NCBI GenBank assembly: GCA_046538485.1
Contig: JBKHIT010000007.1
Coordinates: forward strand, 32,001 to 96,000
Origin: Candidatus Brocadiia bacterium
GTDB lineage: Bacteria > Planctomycetota > Brocadiia > SM23-32
Direction of reading: 5' to 3'
DNA length: 64,000 bases
Below are positions 43,982 to 59,249 of this stretch, in pieces. The notes below the pieces were generated by a model. That model searched no databases, was not told the origin of the DNA, and saw only the letters and a program-made list of their open reading frames with translations. Within the stretch, counting starts at the first letter, position 1, and every line of letters begins with the position of its first letter. Made by a program: the position numbers and the translations under genes.

Positions 43982-44497
43982 ATGGCTTCGGACAAAAAAA
44001 AATGTGATATTTGTGGAAGACGCGAGGCGACGATTCACCTCACCGATTTTGTCGATGGACAACCTGTGGAAAGGGATTTGTGCGAAGAATGTTATGCGGA
44101 GCAAGATGGAGTCCCGCCAGTTTCATCGTCGCAGATTTTCCAGCAGCTTGTGGGGGCCCTGGCCCCTGAACTGGAGGAAGCTACGAACAAAAAATGTCCT
44201 GAGTGCGGTATCTCATATCTTGAGTTTCGTCAGACCTTGAGGTTTGGTTGTCCCAATGATTACGAATTTTTTAGCGAGCAGCTGGATGATTTGCTTAAGC
44301 AGTTGCATGGTGCGACCCGACATGTCGGTCGACTCCCCAGCGGTGCGGCGCAACGGGGAAGTTCGCAAGCTCGCATCCAGGTGCTTAAGCGGGAGCTGGA
44401 TGAAGCTGTCGAGCGGGAAGATTTTGAGAAAGCAGCTCGTTTTAGAGATCGGATTCAAGAATTGGAGCAAGACAGTGATCGAAACGTTGAGAAATAA
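43982..44497 (+). CDS. mcsA: McsA (CxxC motifs + UVR domain)
   Basis: CDIC...LCEEC, CPEC, EREDFEKAARFRDRI. Confidence 0.92.
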   Translation: MASDKKKCDICGRREATIHLTDFVDGQPVERDLCEECYAEQDGVPPVSSSQIFQQLVGALAPELEEATNKKCPECGISYLEFRQTLRFGCPNDYEFFSEQLDDLLKQLHGATRHVGRLPSGAAQRGSSQARIQVLKRELDEAVEREDFEKAARFRDRIQELEQDSDRNVEK

Positions 44498-45521
44498 AAT
44501 GGGAGAGTGGCTGAGCGGTGGCCCGGAGGAAGACGTGGTCATAAGCAGCCGGATCCGATTGGCCCGAAATGTTTCGGAGTATCCCTTTATTTCCCGAGCG
44601 AGTGGCCGTGAGGTCGCTCGAATCGAAGAGGTACTTCATAACAAGATTATGAAAGCGGACTTCGGTGAATCCGTTCAGTACTATCGGTTAGATCGGCTTG
44701 ATCCCGTCTATCGGGAACTGCTTGTGGAACGGCATCTGATAGGTCTCAACCATGCCGAAGCGGATTGGGTCCGAGGGGTGGCGTTTAACGAGGACGAGCG
44801 GATGAGCCTGCTGGTGAATGAAGAAGATCATCTTCGCATGCAAGCCATACGCGGCGGGCTTCGTCTGAGAGAGGCATGTAAGAGAGTTTTTGATGTCGAA
44901 GCCATCCTGGCAGAAATGGTCCCTTTTGCATTTTCAGCCCGATACGGCTATCTGACTGCTTGCCCGACAAATGTGGGTACGGGGATGCGAGCAAGCGTAA
45001 TGCTGCATTTGCCCGCTCTGGTGATGTCCCGCGAAATGGACAAAGTTTTGCAGCTTTCACAAGAAGACGGCCTCATTGTGCGAGGATTATATGGAGAGGG
45101 AACTCAAGCTTCGGCGGACCTTTATCAGATTTCGAATCAGTTGTCTTTGGGCGTGACGGAAGAGGAAGTGTTGCAGGCGGTCTCGGTCGCAACGGAGCAG
45201 GTGGTTGAGCTGGAGCGGGAATCGCGAGAGGACCTGGCTAAACGGTACCAGAAGCGGCTTTCGGAACGGATTGATCGGGCATATAGGTTGTTGAAATCGG
45301 CGTCGATGATATCTTCTGAAGAAGCCTTGAATTTGCTTTCGCAGGTGCGCATGGGAATCGAACTTGGATTGGTTAAACAGATCGATGACGAAACGGTTCG
45401 GGAGCTGGTTCTCTTGACTTTGCCTGCGCATCTTCAGACAATGGTACAAGGTAAGGAAACTGATAGGTTGGAGCGTAACGAACTGAGAGCATCATATCTC
45501 AGAGAACGCCTTATTAATTGA
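44475..45521 (+). CDS. mcsB: Protein arginine kinase
   Basis: ISSRIRLARN, NEEDHLR, LTACPTNVGTG, YQISNQ. GTG 44475 after GGAG. Confidence 0.95.
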   Translation: MIETLRNKMGEWLSGGPEEDVVISSRIRLARNVSEYPFISRASGREVARIEEVLHNKIMKADFGESVQYYRLDRLDPVYRELLVERHLIGLNHAEADWVRGVAFNEDERMSLLVNEEDHLRMQAIRGGLRLREACKRVFDVEAILAEMVPFAFSARYGYLTACPTNVGTGMRASVMLHLPALVMSREMDKVLQLSQEDGLIVRGLYGEGTQASADLYQISNQLSLGVTEEEVLQAVSVATEQVVELERESREDLAKRYQKRLSERIDRAYRLLKSASMISSEEALNLLSQVRMGIELGLVKQIDDETVRELVLLTLPAHLQTMVQGKETDRLERNELRASYLRERLIN

Positions 45522-45555
45522 ATATAAGCGGTCATTCGGAGACTGAGAAAAAAAG

Positions 45556-48045
45556 ATGTACGATAGATTCACGGAAAAAGCCAAGAAAGTTATAAGTTAC
45601 GCAAAACAAGAGGCCCAGCGGTTGGGGCATGAATATATCGGTACCGAACATTTGCTTCTCGGCGTGCTCCGGGAAGGTACCGGCATGGCCTATACTATTC
45701 TCCAAAGGCTGGATGTCGATCCTAAACGAGTCCGACTTGAAATCGAAAAGCGTGTCCGACACAGCGCCGAAGGCGTTGATTCGGGACAACAATTTCCGTT
45801 TGCTCCAAGAGCTCGCAAGTCGATTGAATACGCGGTAGAAGAGGGGAAAAGACTCGGCCAGAATTACGTTGGTACGGAACATATTCTGCTGGGTTTATTG
45901 AGAGAGGCAGAAGGAATTGCCTCAAAAGTCATCCGGAATTTTGGGGTTGAATTTGAAGATGTGGAGGAGCAGCTATTTGAGCTTCTGGGCCCCGAACTCG
46001 ATGCCGATGAAGAAGATGAATTTGATGAACGAGAAGAAGATTCAAAGAGCAAAACCCCTGCTCTCGATTCGTTCGGGCGGGATATGACGGAACAGGCCCG
46101 TGAAAACGAACTCGATCCGGTGATCGGACGTGACCAGGAAATTGAGAGAGTGATTCAAGTCCTGTGCCGTCGCAAAAAGAATAACCCGGTCTTGCTGGGC
46201 GAAGCCGGGGTGGGGAAGACCGCTATTGTTGAAGGACTTGCCCAGAGGATCGTCTCGAATAACGTTCCCAGCATCCTCCGTGCTCGGCGAATCGTGACGC
46301 TCGATCTCGCTTTGATGGTGGCCGGCACGAAATACCGCGGCCAGTTTGAAGAGCGTATCAAGGCGGTTATGCAGGAGGTCAAGAAGGCCCATAATGTCAT
46401 CATTTTTATCGATGAATTGCACACTCTGGTGGGAGCGGGTGGTGCCGAGGGAGCTATCGATGCTTCTAACGTGCTGAAACCACCGCTTTCGCGCGGCGAA
46501 ATTCAGTGTATCGGCGCCAGCACGCCTGACGAATATCGCAAACATGTGGAAAAAGACAGTGCCCTGGAACGTCGTTTCCAGCCGATCATGGTGAGTCCGC
46601 CCAACAAACAGGAAACGGTCGATATCCTGCGTGGTTTGCGTGAATGTTATGAGTCTCACCATATGGTCGAGATCACCGATGCAGCGATCCGAAATGCGGC
46701 GGATCTTTCAGGACGTTACGTTACCGGACGGTATTTGCCGGATAAGGCCATTGATGTGATCGACGAAGCAGGTGCGCTTGTTCGTCTCCGCTCGATGAGT
46801 GTCCCTCCAGAGGTTTCAGAAATCGATTCTCGACTGGACGAACTCGGCGTGGAGTTGGATCAGGCCGTCCAAGAACAGGATTTCGAACAAGCTGTTTTTT
46901 TGCGTAACGAACGGGATAAACTGCGGGAACAGAAATCAGAGTGCGAGGAACAACAACTTCTGGATGGTGTCCAGGGCGTTGTGGATGAGGATGTTGTCGC
47001 TGAAGTGGTTTCCCGAATGACCGGGGTGCCATTGACGCGGCTCACCGAGGGCGAGGCGGAACGGCTCCTTAGAATGGAAGAAAAACTTCACGAGATGGTC
47101 GTCAGTCAGCATGAAGCCGTAGAGGCTGTAAGCCGGGCGATCCGCCGGTCGCGAGCCGGTATGAAAGATCCAAGCCGACCGGTCGCAAGTGTTATCTTTG
47201 CCGGCCCAACCGGCGTGGGGAAGACCCACCTCGCACGATCGCTGGCCAAATTCCTCTTCGGCGAAGAGGAAGCGCTGATCCAGGTGGATATGTCGGAGTT
47301 TATGGAAAAACACAACGTTTCCAAGCTTGTGGGGGCCCCTCCCGGTTATGTCGGCTATGAGGAGGGGGGACAACTGACCGAACAAATTCGCCGCCGGCCT
47401 TACTCAGTGGTTCTCCTTGATGAGATCGAGAAAGCCCATGGTGAAGTCTTCAACATGCTTCTACAGATCATGGAAGATGGCCACCTGACGGATAGTTTTG
47501 GTCGGCGTGTGGACTTCCGAAACGTCGTATTGATTATGACATCGAACGTGGGTTCGGAAATTATCCGGAACAGTGCAGGACTCGGATTCCGAAAACAGGA
47601 TGAGGAAGCCACTTACCAGAAGATCAAAAAACAGGTGATGGAAGAGATCGAAAACCATTTCCGTCCCGAATTTCTGAACCGGCTGGATGATACCATAGTC
47701 TTCCGAACTCTCACGCGGGAAGATCTGCAGCAAATCGTACAGCTGGAACTGGACAAAATTATGGAGCGGCTCAGCAGTCACAAAATTGAGCTCGTCGTTA
47801 CTCAGGGTGCACTTGATGTAATCATTGAGCGAGGTTATAACCCCGATTTTGGTGCACGCCCCTTGAGAAGAGCGCTGGAGTATCTGCTTGAGGATCCGCT
47901 CAGCGAGAAGATACTCAAGGGAGATCTGAATACCGGAAAAGTTGTTGCGTATCCTGATGGCGACAAGCTACGCTTCGAATCTGAGAAGGCCGGCGAGACG
48001 GAAAGCGATACCAAAGAAGAGACCGCCACAGCGGCGAAGACGTGA
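45556..48045 (+). CDS. clpC: ATP-dependent Clp protease ATP-binding subunit ClpC
   Basis: Two Clp N repeats, [11 protein letters not shown]-type M domain, [11 protein letters not shown] ClpP-binding loop. Confidence 0.96.
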
Positions 48046-51326: not shown

Positions 51327-51746
51327 TCAGTGAATCAATTTTCCTGTCGTGCCGAGGTTAAGTTTGCCGTATTTAACCCCGCGCATACTGATGAGCTTTT
51401 CTCCGAAAGCGCGCACTTCTTTGCCCGGGCCTTTTAAAACGATAATTTCAAGACAATTATGGTGGTCAATATGGATGTGCAGCGATGAAATGACCTCTCC
51501 TACGTGCTCGTGTTGTGCGTCGAGTAAGCGGGTATCGACGGACATTTCATGGTGATCGTAGACCAGGAATAAGATGCCAAAATTTTCCGTTTCGCTGGCT
51601 GCCCACTCCTCTTCTACAAGTTCTTCCCGGATCAGGTCGCGGATAGCCTCCGAGCGGTTTTCATACCCCTTGTCTCGAATCAACCTGTCAAAGTTGTCGA
51701 GCAGGTCCATGTTGAGTGACACTCCAAAACGCACCGTTTCTGACAT
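51327..51746 (-). CDS. nikR: Nickel-responsive regulator NikR
   Basis: RFGVS...NRSEAIRDLIR (RHH domain), QH.H...SSLHIH...NCLE Ni ligands. Confidence 0.95.
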   Translation of the reverse strand: MSETVRFGVSLNMDLLDNFDRLIRDKGYENRSEAIRDLIREELVEEEWAASETENFGILFLVYDHHEMSVDTRLLDAQHEHVGEVISSLHIHIDHHNCLEIIVLKGPGKEVRAFGEKLISMRGVKYGKLNLGTTGKLIH

Positions 51747-54457: not shown

Positions 54458-54534
54458 TGGTAGCGGGGGTGGGACTCGAACCCACGGCCTGAGGCTTATG
54501 AATCCTCCGCTCTAGCCAGCTGAGCTACCCCGCC
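54458..54534 (-). tRNA. tRNA-Met(CAT), elongator type, CCA encoded
   Basis: GGCGGGGTAGCTCAGCTGGCTAGAGCGGAGGATTCATAAGCCTCAGGCCGTGGGTTCGAGTCCCACCCCCGCTACCA. Position 1:72 pairs, so it is not an initiator. Ile2 is not fully excluded. Confidence 0.93.
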
Positions 54535-54557: not shown

Positions 54558-54585
54558 ATTATAAATCTTCCCCCCCTTTTGTCAA
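54558..54585 (-). promoter_or_regulatory. Sigma-70 promoter for the tRNA
   Basis: Minus strand TTGACA-16-TATAAT. Confidence 0.7.
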
Positions 54586-54602: not shown

Positions 54603-54631
54603 TTGACAGCGGGACGACCACCTTCTATAGT
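54603..54631 (+). promoter_or_regulatory. Sigma-70 promoter for the hydrogenase-metVF operon
   Basis: TTGACA-17-TATAGT, back-to-back with the tRNA promoter. Confidence 0.7.
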
Positions 54632-54757
54632 CTTATTCTCTGACTCTGTCCGGGAGTGGGCGTCCGCCCCTCCATGGTTCGAGTGACTCCCATCTTGACG
54701 CCTTGATGGGCGTTGGAAATTGAAGACTCTGTGCGGCAGGAAATGAGGGAGAAAAAA

Positions 54758-55636
54758 ATGCCGGTAAAAGAGATACCTGTGATCTGGTTGCAGGGAGGCG
54801 GATGCTCGGGTTGCACTGTGTCGCTTGCCAATTCCAAGTTCCCCTCTTTGCGTAACATTTTGATCGATCAGCTCCTCCCCGGAGCGCACTTGAACCTTCT
54901 TTATCATCCCACTCTTATGGCTGGAGAAGGTGAGCAGGCGTTCTCGGTTCTGGAGGAACCCCCCGACGGGTATGTGCTGGCCGTGGAGGGGGCGATCCCC
55001 GAAAACGAGCGTTTCTGCACCATTGGTGAAAAGAACGGCGAAGAGGCGACCATGCTTGCCAAATTCGTGGAACTTGCCCGGGACGCCTCGCTCGTCCTGG
55101 CCGTCGGGACATGTTCATCATTCGGCGGAATACCGAGCGGGCATCCAAACCCGGGACAGTATCGGCCTGCGCATGAAATCATGCAGAAACATGACATCGA
55201 GATACCTGTGGTGAACGTGCCCGGTTGCCCGCCTCATCCGGATTGGATAACAACAACTCTGAGCGAATTCATGCTCGCCTCCGGCACCGAGGGCGTCGCC
55301 GTCGACAAGTGGCACCGTCCGCTGACAATCTACGGACAGCTCATCCACGAGAATTGTCCACGACGCGCTTATTTTGATGAGGGCAAGTTTGCTGAAACAC
55401 CCGGAGACCCCGAGTGCCTGTATGAACTCGGATGTAAGGGACCAATTACGTATGCCGATTGCCCCGTGCGGGAATGGAACGGGGGCACCAACTGGTGCGT
55501 CGGTGCAGGCGGGCCGTGTAATGGCTGCACGCAACCCGAATATATCGACGAGGTCACTCCGCTGTATCGCAAACTTCCCGAGGACGCACTGCCGAAGATT
55601 GGACAAGTTAACTCACCAGGAGATGATAATGAGTAA
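54758..55636 (+). CDS. [NiFe]-hydrogenase small subunit, group-1a/HysB-like, no Tat signal
   Basis: WLQGGGCSGC, GTCSSFGG, PGCPPHP, HENC, CLYELGCKGP...DCP...NWC...PCNGC. Confidence 0.95.
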   Translation: MPVKEIPVIWLQGGGCSGCTVSLANSKFPSLRNILIDQLLPGAHLNLLYHPTLMAGEGEQAFSVLEEPPDGYVLAVEGAIPENERFCTIGEKNGEEATMLAKFVELARDASLVLAVGTCSSFGGIPSGHPNPGQYRPAHEIMQKHDIEIPVVNVPGCPPHPDWITTTLSEFMLASGTEGVAVDKWHRPLTIYGQLIHENCPRRAYFDEGKFAETPGDPECLYELGCKGPITYADCPVREWNGGTNWCVGAGGPCNGCTQPEYIDEVTPLYRKLPEDALPKIGQVNSPGDDNE

Positions 55637-57170
55637 GAGCACAATTACCATCGACCCTGTTACCCGGATTGAAGGACACCTCGGGGTGCATGTGGAACAG
55701 GAAGACGGTACGGTGACCGAGGCCCGCTGTTCGGGAACTCTCTTCCGTGGTCTGGAAAGCATCATGGGAGGACGCGACCCTCGTGATGCCCCTATACTGA
55801 CACAAAGAATCTGCGGGGTTTGTCCTCAGGCGCACGCCACGGCTTCGGCTCGAGCGCTCGATGAAGCGTATGGTGTGGCCGATCAGGTGCCCGCCAATGG
55901 GCGCCTGCTGCGTGATATCCTGCTCGGAGCCAATTTCCTGCAATCCCACGTGCTCCATTTTTACCATCTCGCCGCTCTCGATTACGTCGATGTGACGGCG
56001 GTGCAGAAATATTCCGGAAATGATTCCGACCTGCAGGCCGTCAAAAATTTTCTTTCGCGAGGAAACGCTCAGCCGTTTGTGCCGCGCTATGAAGGCGATT
56101 ATCGGCTTGAGCCGGATGAGAATGTGGCGGCGACAAAACATTACGTTGAAGCACTCGATGTGCGAAGAAATGCCCACGAGTTGCTGGCCTTGTTCGGCGG
56201 CAAAATGCCCCATCAATGCACAGTCAATGTCGGCGGGGTCGGGACAGAAGTCACCTCCGACAAAGTGATGCGGGCGCTTTCGTATGTCGAGGATATCCTC
56301 GAGTTTGTGAACACCGCCTATCTGCCCGATATTCTGCTGGCCGCTGAACGATACCCCGATTACCTCAAGATCGGGGCCGGCTGTTCGCGTTTTCTGTCGT
56401 ATGGCGGTCTGGATTCAACGGGCGATCCAATGTTCAGCAGCGGAATCCTGACACCCGATAACGAATTTGTTGCGTTCGATCGAGATAAGATCCGAGAGGA
56501 AATTTCCAGCTCGTATTACGCGGGTGAATCGGAGTCGAATACGCCATTCGATAGCACGAGTGTTCCCGACGCGGAAAAAGACGGAGCTTATTCCTGGCTG
56601 AAATCCCCGCGCTACGATGGCAAGCCCTGCGAGGTTGGCCCCCTGGCCCGGATGATGATCGGCTATGCAGCCGGAAATAAGGCCGTCAAACCGGCTGTCG
56701 AAGGCTTGCTGGAAAAAACCGGATTGCAGCCCGTCCAGCTGAATTCAACTCTTGGTCGTCACGCCGCCCGCGCTCTGGAGACCAAACTGATGGCGGAAGC
56801 GATGAGAGAGTGGATTATGGCCCTTGAACCGGGCGCTTCCTGCACCCTCGGCCTGGATGTTCCGGAGTCGGGCCGGGGCGCCGGGCTCACGGAAGCCCCA
56901 CGGGGGGCGCTCAGTCATTGGGCCACGATCGAAGACGGCGAACTGGCGAACTACCAGTGCGTCGTCCCCACGACCTGGAACGGGTCCCCGCGAGATAATC
57001 AGAATGTCCCCGGGCCCATCGAGCAGGCCATTGAAAATGAAACCATCAAAGACCTGGACAATCCCTTCGAAGTGGTGCGGATTATCCGATCCTTTGACCC
57101 CTGTCTCGCATGTGCTGTTCATCTGCAGCGCCCGAAAGGTGAACTGCGGCTGGAGCTGCCCATAAAGTGA
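55629..57170 (+). CDS. [NiFe]-hydrogenase large subunit, group-1a/HysA-like (Cys, not Sec)
   Basis: IDPVTRIEGH, L1 QRICGVCPQAH, HFYHLAALDY, EAPRGALSHW, L2 FDPCLACAVH plus a C-terminal extension. Confidence 0.96.
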   Translation: MSKSTITIDPVTRIEGHLGVHVEQEDGTVTEARCSGTLFRGLESIMGGRDPRDAPILTQRICGVCPQAHATASARALDEAYGVADQVPANGRLLRDILLGANFLQSHVLHFYHLAALDYVDVTAVQKYSGNDSDLQAVKNFLSRGNAQPFVPRYEGDYRLEPDENVAATKHYVEALDVRRNAHELLALFGGKMPHQCTVNVGGVGTEVTSDKVMRALSYVEDILEFVNTAYLPDILLAAERYPDYLKIGAGCSRFLSYGGLDSTGDPMFSSGILTPDNEFVAFDRDKIREEISSSYYAGESESNTPFDSTSVPDAEKDGAYSWLKSPRYDGKPCEVGPLARMMIGYAAGNKAVKPAVEGLLEKTGLQPVQLNSTLGRHAARALETKLMAEAMREWIMALEPGASCTLGLDVPESGRGAGLTEAPRGALSHWATIEDGELANYQCVVPTTWNGSPRDNQNVPGPIEQAIENETIKDLDNPFEVVRIIRSFDPCLACAVHLQRPKGELRLELPIK

Positions 57171-57182
57171 GGAGTTCTTGCG

Positions 57183-57689
57183 ATGCACAAGAAGTCCCAA
57201 AAATCCCAGATCGCAATCATCGGGTTGGGAAACCTGTTGATGTCCGACGAAGGGATCGGGATCCACGCGATCCGGACCCTTCAGGACGGCTGTCAGGACG
57301 AGGGTGTTGTCTGGATTGATGGCGGCACCGACCCGTGGGCGGCCCTCTGGGAGGCGCGAGATTGTCAGCACGTGATCATAATCGATGCCGTGGAAGGCAA
57401 TGCGTTGCCCGGAACGCTCTACAGATGCGACATCGAAGAAGTGGAATCCGAAACCGGCGGGTTGTCCCTTCACGACACGAGTCTCAGCCAGATCGTCGCT
57501 TTTGAAGGGTCAGTGGGAAATGCGTTCGCCTCGGTCACGGTGCTGGGTATCGAACCGGACCGATTGGATTTTGGTATTGGCCTTTCCCAGACCTGCAGTA
57601 AGAAACTCTCCGAATTGATGCGGGTTGTCCGCTGTGAGATCGATAGATTGAAAAATGACAATAAAACCCAAGGAGTGCGGCCATGCTAG
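57183..57689 (+). CDS. Hydrogenase maturation protease
   Basis: GLGNLLMSDEGIG, DGGT, IIDAV, SLHD. Confidence 0.95.
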   Translation: MHKKSQKSQIAIIGLGNLLMSDEGIGIHAIRTLQDGCQDEGVVWIDGGTDPWAALWEARDCQHVIIIDAVEGNALPGTLYRCDIEEVESETGGLSLHDTSLSQIVAFEGSVGNAFASVTVLGIEPDRLDFGIGLSQTCSKKLSELMRVVRCEIDRLKNDNKTQGVRPC

Positions 57690-58378
57690 TAACCGAACTC
57701 AAGCCGCAGGAAGAGGTTCTGGAAGAACTCGAAGGCGATTCCAGCGTCTTTCTTCTGGGCTGTGACGGGTGCGCGAGCGCCTGCGAAACCGGAGGGGCGG
57801 AAAATCTTCCGACCCTCGTAGAAATGCTCGAGGATGCCGGAGTAAAAGTAACCGGCCAGACCTCGCTCGATTATCTGTGCAATAAATCGCTCATACGGTC
57901 GCACCTGCGACCCTACGAGGACGACATCGTGAAATCGGACTGCGTCCTTGTTGCAACGTGCGGGGTCGGAGTTCAGTGTGTCGCCGACAGCGTTCTCAAG
58001 CGCACCAGACCCGCCTGCAATACCGTCAATATGGGCGGATCGGGTGGCACTCAGATGTCAACCGAGCGTTGCGCCGAATGTGGCGATTGCCTGCTGGATC
58101 AGACGGGCGGAATCTGCCCGATCACCGGATGCTCCAAAAGTATGGTGAATGGCCCCTGCGGCGGCACAACGAGCGACGGAAAATGCGAAGTCGATAGCAA
58201 AAGGGATTGTGGTTGGTACAGGATCTATGAGCGCTTGAAAGACTTGAAAGCACTCGATCAAATGAAAGAAATTGCCCCACCGAAAAAATACGGATTGTTC
58301 CTGCCGTCATACGAACGAATGACCAGCGAATTCTGGGCGGTCCAGGCTCAGTCAGAGCAAGGAGGGGACGATGAGTAA
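57683..58378 (+). CDS. metV: Methylene-THF reductase small (Fe-S/Zn) subunit MetV
   Basis: GCDGCA..C, CGVGVQ, CAECGDC......GICP...CSKSMVNGPCGG....KCEV....CGW. Confidence 0.92.
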   Translation: MLVTELKPQEEVLEELEGDSSVFLLGCDGCASACETGGAENLPTLVEMLEDAGVKVTGQTSLDYLCNKSLIRSHLRPYEDDIVKSDCVLVATCGVGVQCVADSVLKRTRPACNTVNMGGSGGTQMSTERCAECGDCLLDQTGGICPITGCSKSMVNGPCGGTTSDGKCEVDSKRDCGWYRIYERLKDLKALDQMKEIAPPKKYGLFLPSYERMTSEFWAVQAQSEQGGDDE

Positions 58379-59249
58379 TTTGTCAGAAGCGCTGGCAACG
58401 CAAGATTTTGTCGTAACCGGAGAAATCGGCCCCCCGAAGGGCGTAAACGTCGAAGAATGTCTCGAAGATGCCGAACATCTCCGAGGCAAAGTGGCCGCTA
58501 TCAATGTCACCGATATCCAGAGCGCTGTGATGCGCGTGGGATCGATGGCGACCTGCAAACTCCTGATCGAGCGCGACCTTGAACCGATCCTGCAGATGGT
58601 CTGCCGGGACCGGAATCGTCTTGCGCTCCAGAGCGACCTGCTGAGCGCACACATCCTCGGCATTGAGAACGTCCTCTGCCTGACCGGCGACCACAATGTG
58701 CTCGGGGATCATCCCGATTCCAAACCGGTGTTCGATCTCGAAGCGGTCGGGTTGCTTGAGGCTGCCACGGGACTTATGGAGGGAGAGGATATCGCGGGCG
58801 AGGAACTCGACGGAGCCCCGGAACTGTTCCTCGGTGCCGTTGTCACCCCCGGAGCCGATCCGGTCGAACCCCAGATCATGCGGATGGAAAAAAAGATCGA
58901 GGCAGGGGCCAGGTTCTTCCAGACCCAGGCAATCTACGATACGGATCAGTTCGCCAATTTCATGAAACAGGTCGAAGGATTCGGGGTCCCCGTCCTCGGC
59001 GGGATTGTCCTGCTGAAATCGGCCGGAATGGCGCGCTTCATGAACGCGAACGTCGCCGGCGTCAACGTGCCCGATCACCTGATCGAGCACATGAACAAAG
59101 ATGATGGGAAAAGCAATAGCGAAAAAGCCGTGGATATCGCCGTTGAAACCATCAACGGACTCAAAGATATCTGTGATGGTGTCCACATCATGCCGCTCGG
59201 CTGGGACCACCTGGTGCCGGAGATCATCGAACGGTCCGGGCTGGGGTGA
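58371..59249 (+). CDS. metF: Methylene-THF reductase flavoprotein MetF
   Basis: EIGPPKG, NVTD, CRDRNRLALQ, LTGDH, KKIEAGARFFQTQ, GVHIM. Confidence 0.95.
   Translation: MSNLSEALATQDFVVTGEIGPPKGVNVEECLEDAEHLRGKVAAINVTDIQSAVMRVGSMATCKLLIERDLEPILQMVCRDRNRLALQSDLLSAHILGIENVLCLTGDHNVLGDHPDSKPVFDLEAVGLLEAATGLMEGEDIAGEELDGAPELFLGAVVTPGADPVEPQIMRMEKKIEAGARFFQTQAIYDTDQFANFMKQVEGFGVPVLGGIVLLKSAGMARFMNANVAGVNVPDHLIEHMNKDDGKSNSEKAVDIAVETINGLKDICDGVHIMPLGWDHLVPEIIERSGLG

Follow-up and report, generated by a model that had tools for sequence, protein, structure and literature searches.

Five co-oriented genes of a Candidatus Brocadiia bacterium (Planctomycetota) probably encode a soluble cytoplasmic H2:methylene-tetrahydrofolate (methylene-THF) oxidoreductase, in which a MetVF-type methylene-THF reductase (MTHFR) core would be combined with a hydrogenase derived from group 1a as its electron-input module. 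The genes lie on the forward strand of a 64,000-nt stretch of contig JBKHIT010000007.1 (assembly GCA_046538485.1), which was analysed as a whole and is called the window here. They were assigned from translations of open reading frames (ORFs), followed by Pfam and NCBIfam profiles. The first two encode the [NiFe] small subunit (54758..55636; 292 aa; PF01058 and PF14720) and large subunit (55629..57170; 513 aa; PF00374 at 507 bits and NF033181 at 642.7, cut-off 600), and they overlap by 8 nt. After a gap of 12 nt follows a hydrogenase maturation endopeptidase of the HybD/HycI family (57183..57689; 168 aa; PF01750, 68 bits; TIGR00072, 114 bits with a cut-off of 47). It overlaps by 7 nt with the gene for MetV, the iron–sulfur (Fe–S) subunit of MetVF-type MTHFR (57683..58378; 231 aa; PF12225 at 110 bits), which in turn overlaps by 8 nt with the gene for MetF, the flavoprotein catalytic subunit (58371..59249; 292 aa; PF02219 at 135 bits). 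A putative sigma-70-like promoter, TTGACA-17-TATAGT, is found at 54603..54631 (+), with 11 of 12 consensus matches and the first ATG 127 nt downstream. By consensus match alone, the operon region contains five promoter-like sites, versus a mean of 2.3 in shuffled sequences. There is no terminator-like site on the forward strand within the five-gene unit. Profile searches of the unit and its flanks found no genes for cytochrome b, Hdr, MvhD, RnfC or a diaphorase, and the unit itself encodes neither an electron carrier nor a kinase or regulator. An earlier sequence-only reading of the window had described five co-oriented, overlapping or close-set genes behind a single promoter, with a small subunit free of a twin-arginine translocation (Tat) signal and with no cytochrome b, HdrABC, MvhD, RnfC2 or diaphorase gene in the unit. 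All of this is borne out, by the ORF listing, translations and profiles for the genes, by the consensus match for one promoter-like site, and for the Tat signal by the alignment and the closed upstream frame described below.

In the proposed mechanism, the [NiFe] site of the large subunit would split H2, and the electrons would cross the three Fe–S clusters of the Tat-less small subunit, enter the Fe–S clusters of MetV and finally reach the flavin of MetF, where methylene-THF would be reduced to methyl-THF. The product would feed AcsE and CODH/ACS in the Wood–Ljungdahl pathway's methyl branch, and also MetH. The hydrogenase would play the role which RnfC2 (with NADH) or HdrABC–MvhD has in other MetVF enzymes. 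A functional tie between hydrogenase and MetVF is strongly supported by sequence comparisons, namely, gene order, loss of the Tat leader, congruent trees, co-occurrence with AcsB and the Wood–Ljungdahl gene set of the host. We infer that MetV contacts the hydrogenase, that electrons flow in this direction and that energy is not coupled.

The hydrogenase appears to be a cytoplasmic derivative of periplasmic group 1a (Hys-type) enzymes. The best solved relative of the large subunit is the periplasmic [NiFeSe] large subunit 5jsu_B (399 bits). Its active site is all cysteine (RICGVCP ... DPCLACAVH), the four Ni–Fe cysteines C62, C65, C492 and C495 are invariant in 32 sequences, and a C-terminal extension of 15 residues is present for the co-encoded protease. 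The small subunit keeps the ligands for the proximal, medial and distal Fe–S clusters, as judged from the alignment to 1cc1_S and conservation in 33 sequences, in which C19, C119, C157, H197, C200, C220, C226, C235, C254 and C257 are invariant. The double CxxC motifs of a large subunit closest to Hys-type enzymes and a three-cluster small subunit are features of group 1a in the HydDB sense; the Tat signal and periplasmic respiratory role that go with this group are lacking. Nor is the large subunit of the Mvh type of group 3c, scoring only 101.5 bits with the VhuA model NF041785 (cut-off 800). The alignment of the small subunit to its mature periplasmic counterpart 1cc1_S (222 bits) pairs its residue 3 with residue 5 of the latter and runs on from there. 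The in-frame stretch preceding its ATG comprises 17 codons (WALEIEDSVRQEMREKK), is closed by a stop, contains no twin arginine and lacks a hydrophobic core. Because the upstream frame is this short and closed, a Tat leader is impossible. The C-terminal membrane anchor is also missing, versus a C-terminal membrane helix in four Tat-bearing relatives. We considered a C-terminal 'LP(K/R)IG' tail as a universal docking motif; it is found in the Planctomycetota, Chloroflexota and Armatimonadota clades and is absent from the Omnitrophota-like clade, so that it was rejected as a general motif.

The same gene arrangement recurs in distantly labelled bacteria. In a survey of one genome per GTDB species, made with peptide patterns from the large subunit of the window and not exhaustive, we collected 60 loci, 48 bacterial and 12 archaeal (Methanimicrococcus or Methanolapillus), and scored linkage by tblastn of the five operon proteins. 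In 34 of these 48 bacterial loci, the MetV gene comes immediately after the hydrogenase, a recurrence that is far beyond chance and answers the survey of gene order proposed by the sequence-only reading: the order is conserved. The protease gene lies between hydrogenase and MetV in 31 of the 34 linked loci, and MetF is also downstream in 33. The exception is the closest relative of the window (L010, large subunit 78% identical), which has the order small subunit, large subunit, MetV, with no protease or MetF within 7 kb downstream; L010:7116-10251 represents a split form of the module. The linked loci carry at least nine phylum-level labels, including Planctomycetota, Chloroflexota, Armatimonadota (with Hebobacteria), Aerophobetes, Bacillota, Elusimicrobiota, Omnitrophota, Ratteibacteria and 'Vermiphilus'. 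The two Chloroflexota loci (L020:126-3061 and L021:1254-2135) contain an extra, divergent metV/metF pair, about 40% identical, just upstream of the unit, which is reminiscent of the Chloroflexi single cell DscP3, reported to have two sets of MetVF (PMC5736913).

Linkage to MetVF goes together with the loss of export. A Tat leader is missing from all 33 small subunits recovered from linked loci, as it is from that of the window. By contrast, a leader with TRREFL or SRREFL is found in all ten unlinked bacterial relatives whose small-subunit frame is unbroken and whose downstream flank is present (L026, L027, L030, L033, L041, L050, L051, L052, L054 and L057). Fourteen bacterial loci lack MetV in all. 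In the other four, the small-subunit frame is broken (L031, a sister to L033), the contig starts within the large subunit (L055), or the contig ends just past the protease (L039 and L053); the small subunits of the latter two have no Tat leader and both loci fall inside linked clades. An 'RRDV' in L034 was rejected as a Tat motif since it lies in a 17-codon upstream stretch with neither a start codon nor a hydrophobic region. Thus, in the surveyed loci, loss of export and gain of MetVF coincide without exception. Five of the Tat-bearing loci (L050-L052, L054 and L057, from Selenomonadales/Veillonellaceae) have a large-subunit frame which stops about 40 codons early (around 9390 in L050) with the alignment continuing beyond it, and these enzymes appear to be periplasmic [NiFeSe] hydrogenases with selenocysteine (TGA) and Tat leaders.

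A quick maximum-likelihood tree of the 60 large subunits places the bacterial set in one clade (100*). The window pairs with L010 (99*) inside a Planctomycetota clade of 11 rows (100*), all of which are linked. The label 'linked' requires six changes on this tree, three of them forced by starred branches, versus 19.5 in shuffles. The backbone is unresolved, and the cytoplasmic form may have arisen once or several times. In a concatenated MetV and MetF tree of 31 rows (L020 and L029 excluded), the four clades that we had drawn from the hydrogenase tree all reappear with 100*, and many inner pairs are shared. Since both trees give the same clades, the sequences tell us that the hydrogenase and MetVF halves diverged together.

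Within Planctomycetota, the module was followed in a sample of 401 genomes, including that of the host. MetV is matched in 86 of them and the large subunit in 34 (E <= 1e-60). In 14 genomes other than the host, the two share a contig and a strand and are separated by 0.5-1.3 kb. Three further genomes (G241, G192 and G304) have the large subunit at >= 51% identity on contigs that end before MetV could appear, and in one (G027) a close large subunit is unlinked to MetV. The best 13 MetV matches (44-49% identity) all adjoin a hydrogenase; MetV at <= 43% identity never does. Of these 14 genomes with the module, 12 encode AcsB, versus 70 of 401 overall, and in one case (G082) the AcsB gene shares the contig of the module, 3 kb upstream. 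In another genome (G101, contig C310:1053-4410), the large subunit is followed by MetV twice in tandem, at 45% and 44% identity.

The host assembly comprises 5.19 Mb in 143 contigs and is 88% complete. It encodes Fhs, FolD, MetH and HypD and contains an acs cluster with CooC, CODH, AcsB, AcsC, AcsD, AcsE and RACo, so that, by annotation, the host carries a complete Wood–Ljungdahl gene set. The sequence-only reading had named fhs, folD, acs and methyltransferase genes as a check on its proposal, and all of these are found. At this completeness, exactly one PF02219 match was detected, the MetF of the operon, making it the only MTHFR found in the host. The host has further hydrogenases: a sulfhydrogenase set resembling group 3b, a membrane complex resembling group 4 and a pair resembling group 1. 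In the last case, genes for a histidine kinase and a sigma-54 response regulator come directly after the [NiFe] small and large subunits (contig C10:1445-6573), an arrangement that looks like an H2-sensing regulatory hydrogenase.

Motif and profile analyses place the last two genes of the operon among MetVF-type reductases. MetF falls outside the NAD(P)H-type equivalog (TIGR00676 at 65 bits, cut-off 293.7) and matches PF02219, and the adjoining gene encodes a cysteine-rich MetV of PF12225, a combination which identifies the MetVF core. Twelve cysteines of MetV are invariant in 33 sequences. No RnfC-like NADH-binding subunit, the mark of type III MTHFR, is encoded in or beside the unit. The hdrABC and mvhD genes of type IV are likewise not found in the unit, and FlpD/MvhD (PF02662) has no match in the host genome at 88% completeness. 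A sequence search of the PDB returned no solved relative of MetV. Its AlphaFold model (pLDDT, the predicted local distance difference test score, of 80) has no Foldseek match in the PDB at E <= 0.001, and the best hit of a wide VIA-align search reaches Z 7.7; all structural matches of the model are generic Rossmann-like or periplasmic-binding-protein-like folds. We also considered the N-terminal half of MetV as an MvhD-like adaptor, an idea that found no support: residues 1-110 match no Pfam family (E up to 10) and, in the ESM Atlas, only unnamed clusters with scores below 0.9. Among the best 120 of 312 longer MetV relatives (E <= 1e-10), MetV is fused to MetF, to RnfC-type modules and, in one protein, to a histidine kinase. 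Because the fused partners vary, MetV behaves like a connector to variable electron-input modules.

To what extent MetV physically contacts the hydrogenase was addressed by complex prediction for residues 1-272 of the small subunit, the large subunit and residues 1-210 of MetV, with custom alignments. The median score was 0.44 (runs of 0.44, 0.31 and 0.53), the best of three controls reached 0.01, at least 64% of contacts agree between runs and the partner pLDDT is at least 79. In the calibration, 116 of 157 solved complexes attained the mark, as did 2 of 215 mismatched pairs; scores of <= 0.60 include 18 of the 157 solved complexes and both mismatched pairs that passed, and the prediction, with its three chains and custom alignments, is unlike the calibration. 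It lends weak support to a contact.

Thermodynamics favours the forward reaction. With potentials of -414 mV for H2 and -200 mV for methylene-THF (PMC9586279), reduction of the latter by H2 comes to about -41 kJ/mol. The reaction would, by the Nernst equation, stay exergonic down to roughly 1e-7 bar H2, so that the forward direction would be robust at trace H2 and the reverse implausible. The sequence-only reading had allowed for a module running in reverse at very low H2, which, judged from standard potentials, is thermodynamically unlikely.

Several observations weigh against a hydrogenase and MetVF wired into one soluble enzyme. The three-chain prediction is weak and gave no interface. There is no fusion of MetV to a hydrogenase among the best 120 of the 312 longer MetV relatives. 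The closest relative of the window, L010, retains only MetV beside the hydrogenase. Purified MetVF enzymes take reduced ferredoxin in vitro (PMC8760232), which makes a soluble carrier between hydrogenase and MetVF conceivable. The module MetF is not always the only MTHFR: counting the host, 15 Planctomycetota genomes carry the module, and PF02219 is matched once in six of them and two or three times in the other nine, matches not being equal to copy numbers. The host itself has a second, orphan MetV (contig C54:47112-47750; PF12225; 37% identity to that of the operon) with no adjoining MetF. Finally, leaving 41 kJ/mol uncoupled looks wasteful for a Wood–Ljungdahl organism. The orphan MetV shares contig C54 with the acs cluster and MetH, and its neighbours encode RACo, a 2x[4Fe-4S] ferredoxin, a glutaredoxin/thioredoxin-like protein and DUF1684. 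MetV at a similarly lower identity is found in two families of the same class, f2 (17 of 17 genomes) and f3 (5 of 5), which have no large-subunit match at E <= 1e-60 except in G354 (43% identity, E 2.5e-108).

The main rival, which we hold to be unlikely yet the most serious of the alternatives, is that hydrogenase and MetVF are separate, co-regulated enzymes. The hydrogenase would reduce a diffusible carrier (ferredoxin, flavodoxin or a thioredoxin-like protein), a type II-like MetVF would oxidise it, and the operon would reflect shared regulation by H2 or one-carbon flux. It draws on the missing fusion, the weak complex prediction, the departure of MetF from the L010 locus and the in vitro use of reduced ferredoxin by type II MetVF (PMC8760232). 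However, linkage follows the loss of the Tat leader without exception, and the two halves co-diverge in genes that overlap with translational coupling, a tighter association than mere co-regulation predicts. Besides, the unit encodes no carrier, and, judging from the potentials, H2 at environmental levels would reduce low-potential ferredoxin poorly. Weighing these points, we still favour a hydrogenase that feeds MetVF directly. Of the sequence-only proposal that H2 is wired through Fe–S clusters and MetV to the MetF flavin in a soluble complex, the functional link stands on gene order, Tat loss, trees, AcsB and host genes; the physical complex, with one prediction and no fusion among those 120 relatives, is weakly supported.

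The other alternatives change what the enzyme conserves, which way it runs or what it is for. An energy-coupled variant, which we find improbable, would use the roughly 41 kJ/mol that is otherwise lost, either by docking to a membrane complex or by flavin-based bifurcation, co-reducing ferredoxin or a similar low-potential acceptor, perhaps with a partner encoded elsewhere. Bifurcation has been proposed for type IV MetVF–HdrABC–MvhD (PMC8760232), and the orphan MetV of the host adjoins ferredoxin and glutaredoxin/thioredoxin-like genes. Yet the unit contains no HdrA-like or other second flavoprotein, FlpD/MvhD was not found in the 88% complete host genome, and bifurcation by MetVF alone is judged highly unlikely by the authors of PMC8760232. 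If the variant were true, it would offer an Hdr-independent answer to how the MTHFR step conserves energy in uncultured Wood–Ljungdahl organisms. Quite improbable, in our estimate, is a module working in reverse, in which methyl-THF would be oxidised and the electrons released as H2, during methylotrophy or acetate oxidation by a reversed Wood–Ljungdahl pathway. Group 1a-type enzymes, both [NiFe] and [NiFeSe], do catalyse reversibly, which would permit this. Oxidation of methyl-THF is, moreover, a known bottleneck of the reversed pathway (PMC10689502). Against it, the Nernst equation demands H2 near or below about 1e-7 bar, and the group 3b and group 4-like hydrogenases of the host are better suited to H2 evolution. 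Very improbable is that the hydrogenase senses H2 and governs metVF expression, donating no electrons. Known sensor hydrogenases are indeed cytoplasmic and have no Tat leader. But the window enzyme has a maturation protease of its own and a C-terminal extension that can be cleaved, its closest solved relatives are catalytic group 1a enzymes, no kinase or regulator is present in the unit, and a distinct hydrogenase of the host, on contig C10, is the one found with a histidine kinase and a sigma-54 regulator.

The surroundings of the operon consist of a tRNA-Met gene (-), a B12/radical-SAM gene (-), a gene for NikR (-), a HEAT-repeat protein gene and a GATase1-like gene of 1511 aa (-); by annotation, these have no relation to electron transfer. 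The tRNA-Met (CAT) gene at 54458-54534 (-) has its own sigma-70 promoter at 54558-54585 (-), a perfect 12/12 match standing back to back with the promoter-like site of the operon. The operon leader, 54638-54757 (+), has a moderate and unremarkable fold (z = -1.87). A riboswitch in the leader was considered and dismissed, given this fold and an Rfam search which returned the neighbouring tRNA only. The NikR nickel-responsive repressor (RHH and NikR_C; 51327-51746, -) is encoded 3 kb upstream of the operon, and nickel supply and hydrogenase expression may be coupled. Further upstream, at 43982-48045 (+), the genes for McsA-like (UVR), McsB (ATP:guanido phosphotransferase) and ClpC proteins form an arginine-phosphorylation protein quality-control module.

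The pairing of hydrogenase and MetVF has been noted before. In 2024, adjacency of HysAB and MetVF was reported, with the same role suggested, for metagenome-assembled genomes of Ca. Bipolaricaulia, in one sentence and a figure legend concerning two operational taxonomic units (PMC11287216); these passages contain no survey, remark on Tat loss, phylogeny or biochemistry. The sequence-only reading knew of no characterised example. This holds insofar as our full-text literature searches, which covered main texts, found no characterised example, survey or biochemistry of such a module, and it falls short in that the pairing itself was already in print in that sentence (PMC11287216). The pairing is not described in PMC5736913, PMC7325909, PMC9586279, PMC8542988, PMC10689502 and PMC12529827. 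HydDB placed relatives from Hebobacteria in group 1a, and they were interpreted as respiratory, in a paper whose main text contains neither 'methylene' nor 'metF' (PMC10290634). HydDB-style annotation as 'group 1a respiratory uptake hydrogenases' implies sulfate, metal or organohalide respiration (PMC10290634), and for the linked enzymes it would need correction: on present evidence, they appear to be cytoplasmic and to serve carbon fixation. Since uncultured anaerobes with at least nine phylum-level labels carry the module, it bears on H2 use in sediments, mats and the subsurface. The physiological donor of MetVF and the conservation of energy at this most exergonic step of the Wood–Ljungdahl pathway are an open problem of acetogen bioenergetics (PMC8760232). 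A MetVF with its donor written into the operon provides a direct test case, predicting methylene-THF reduction that depends on H2 and is independent of carriers.

Compared with known systems, the window module would be a MetVF-type MTHFR with a hydrogenase as input, the latter derived from group 1a and lacking its periplasmic location. The MTHFRs of acetogens are divided into MetF alone, MetVF, MetVF–RnfC2 and MetVF–HdrABC–MvhD, and none of these types, as set out in PMC8760232, includes a hydrogenase. Type II MetVF (Clostridium ljungdahlii, Eubacterium callanderi and Thermoanaerobacter kivui) shares with the window adjacent metV and metF genes and a MetF outside the NAD(P)H-type equivalog (PMC8760232). 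In the window, however, the operon of this core also encodes a [NiFe] hydrogenase and its protease, and whereas the physiological donor of type II enzymes is debated (PMC8760232), H2 is the obvious candidate for the window module. Type III MetVF–RnfC2 of Acetobacterium woodii and type IV MetVF–HdrABC–MvhD of Moorella thermoacetica and Sporomusa ovata are similar in that a dedicated input module is encoded beside the MetVF core (PMC8760232, PMC9430772). The input module of the window differs, being a hydrogenase in place of the NADH-oxidising RnfC2 or Hdr/MvhD, and there is no second flavoprotein. Membranes of S. ovata carry out H2-dependent reduction of methylene-THF through a periplasmic cytochrome b-linked hydrogenase, quinone and the type IV enzyme; unlike this membrane-linked route (PMC9430772), the window enzyme is predicted to be soluble. 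On the hydrogenase side, HysAB of D. vulgaris Hildenborough (5jsu/2wpn) and Desulfomicrobium baculatum (1cc1) includes the best solved relatives of both window subunits (399 and 222 bits). Both have a three-cluster small subunit with a fourth cysteine at the medial cluster and a maturation protease of the same type. The window hydrogenase differs in having no Tat leader and in its cysteine in place of selenocysteine at the active site, and its partner would be MetVF, versus cytochrome c3 or a respiratory chain in the case of HysAB. The closest parallels in way of working are MvhAGD–HdrABC (group 3c) and the hydrogen-dependent CO2 reductase (HDCR) of A. woodii, the latter of which uses an [FeFe] hydrogenase. 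In each, a cytoplasmic hydrogenase is hard-wired to a reductase of a C1 pathway, as we propose for the window, an analogy of working and not of family: the hydrogenase lineages are unrelated, the reductases differ and the window unit has no bifurcating HdrA.

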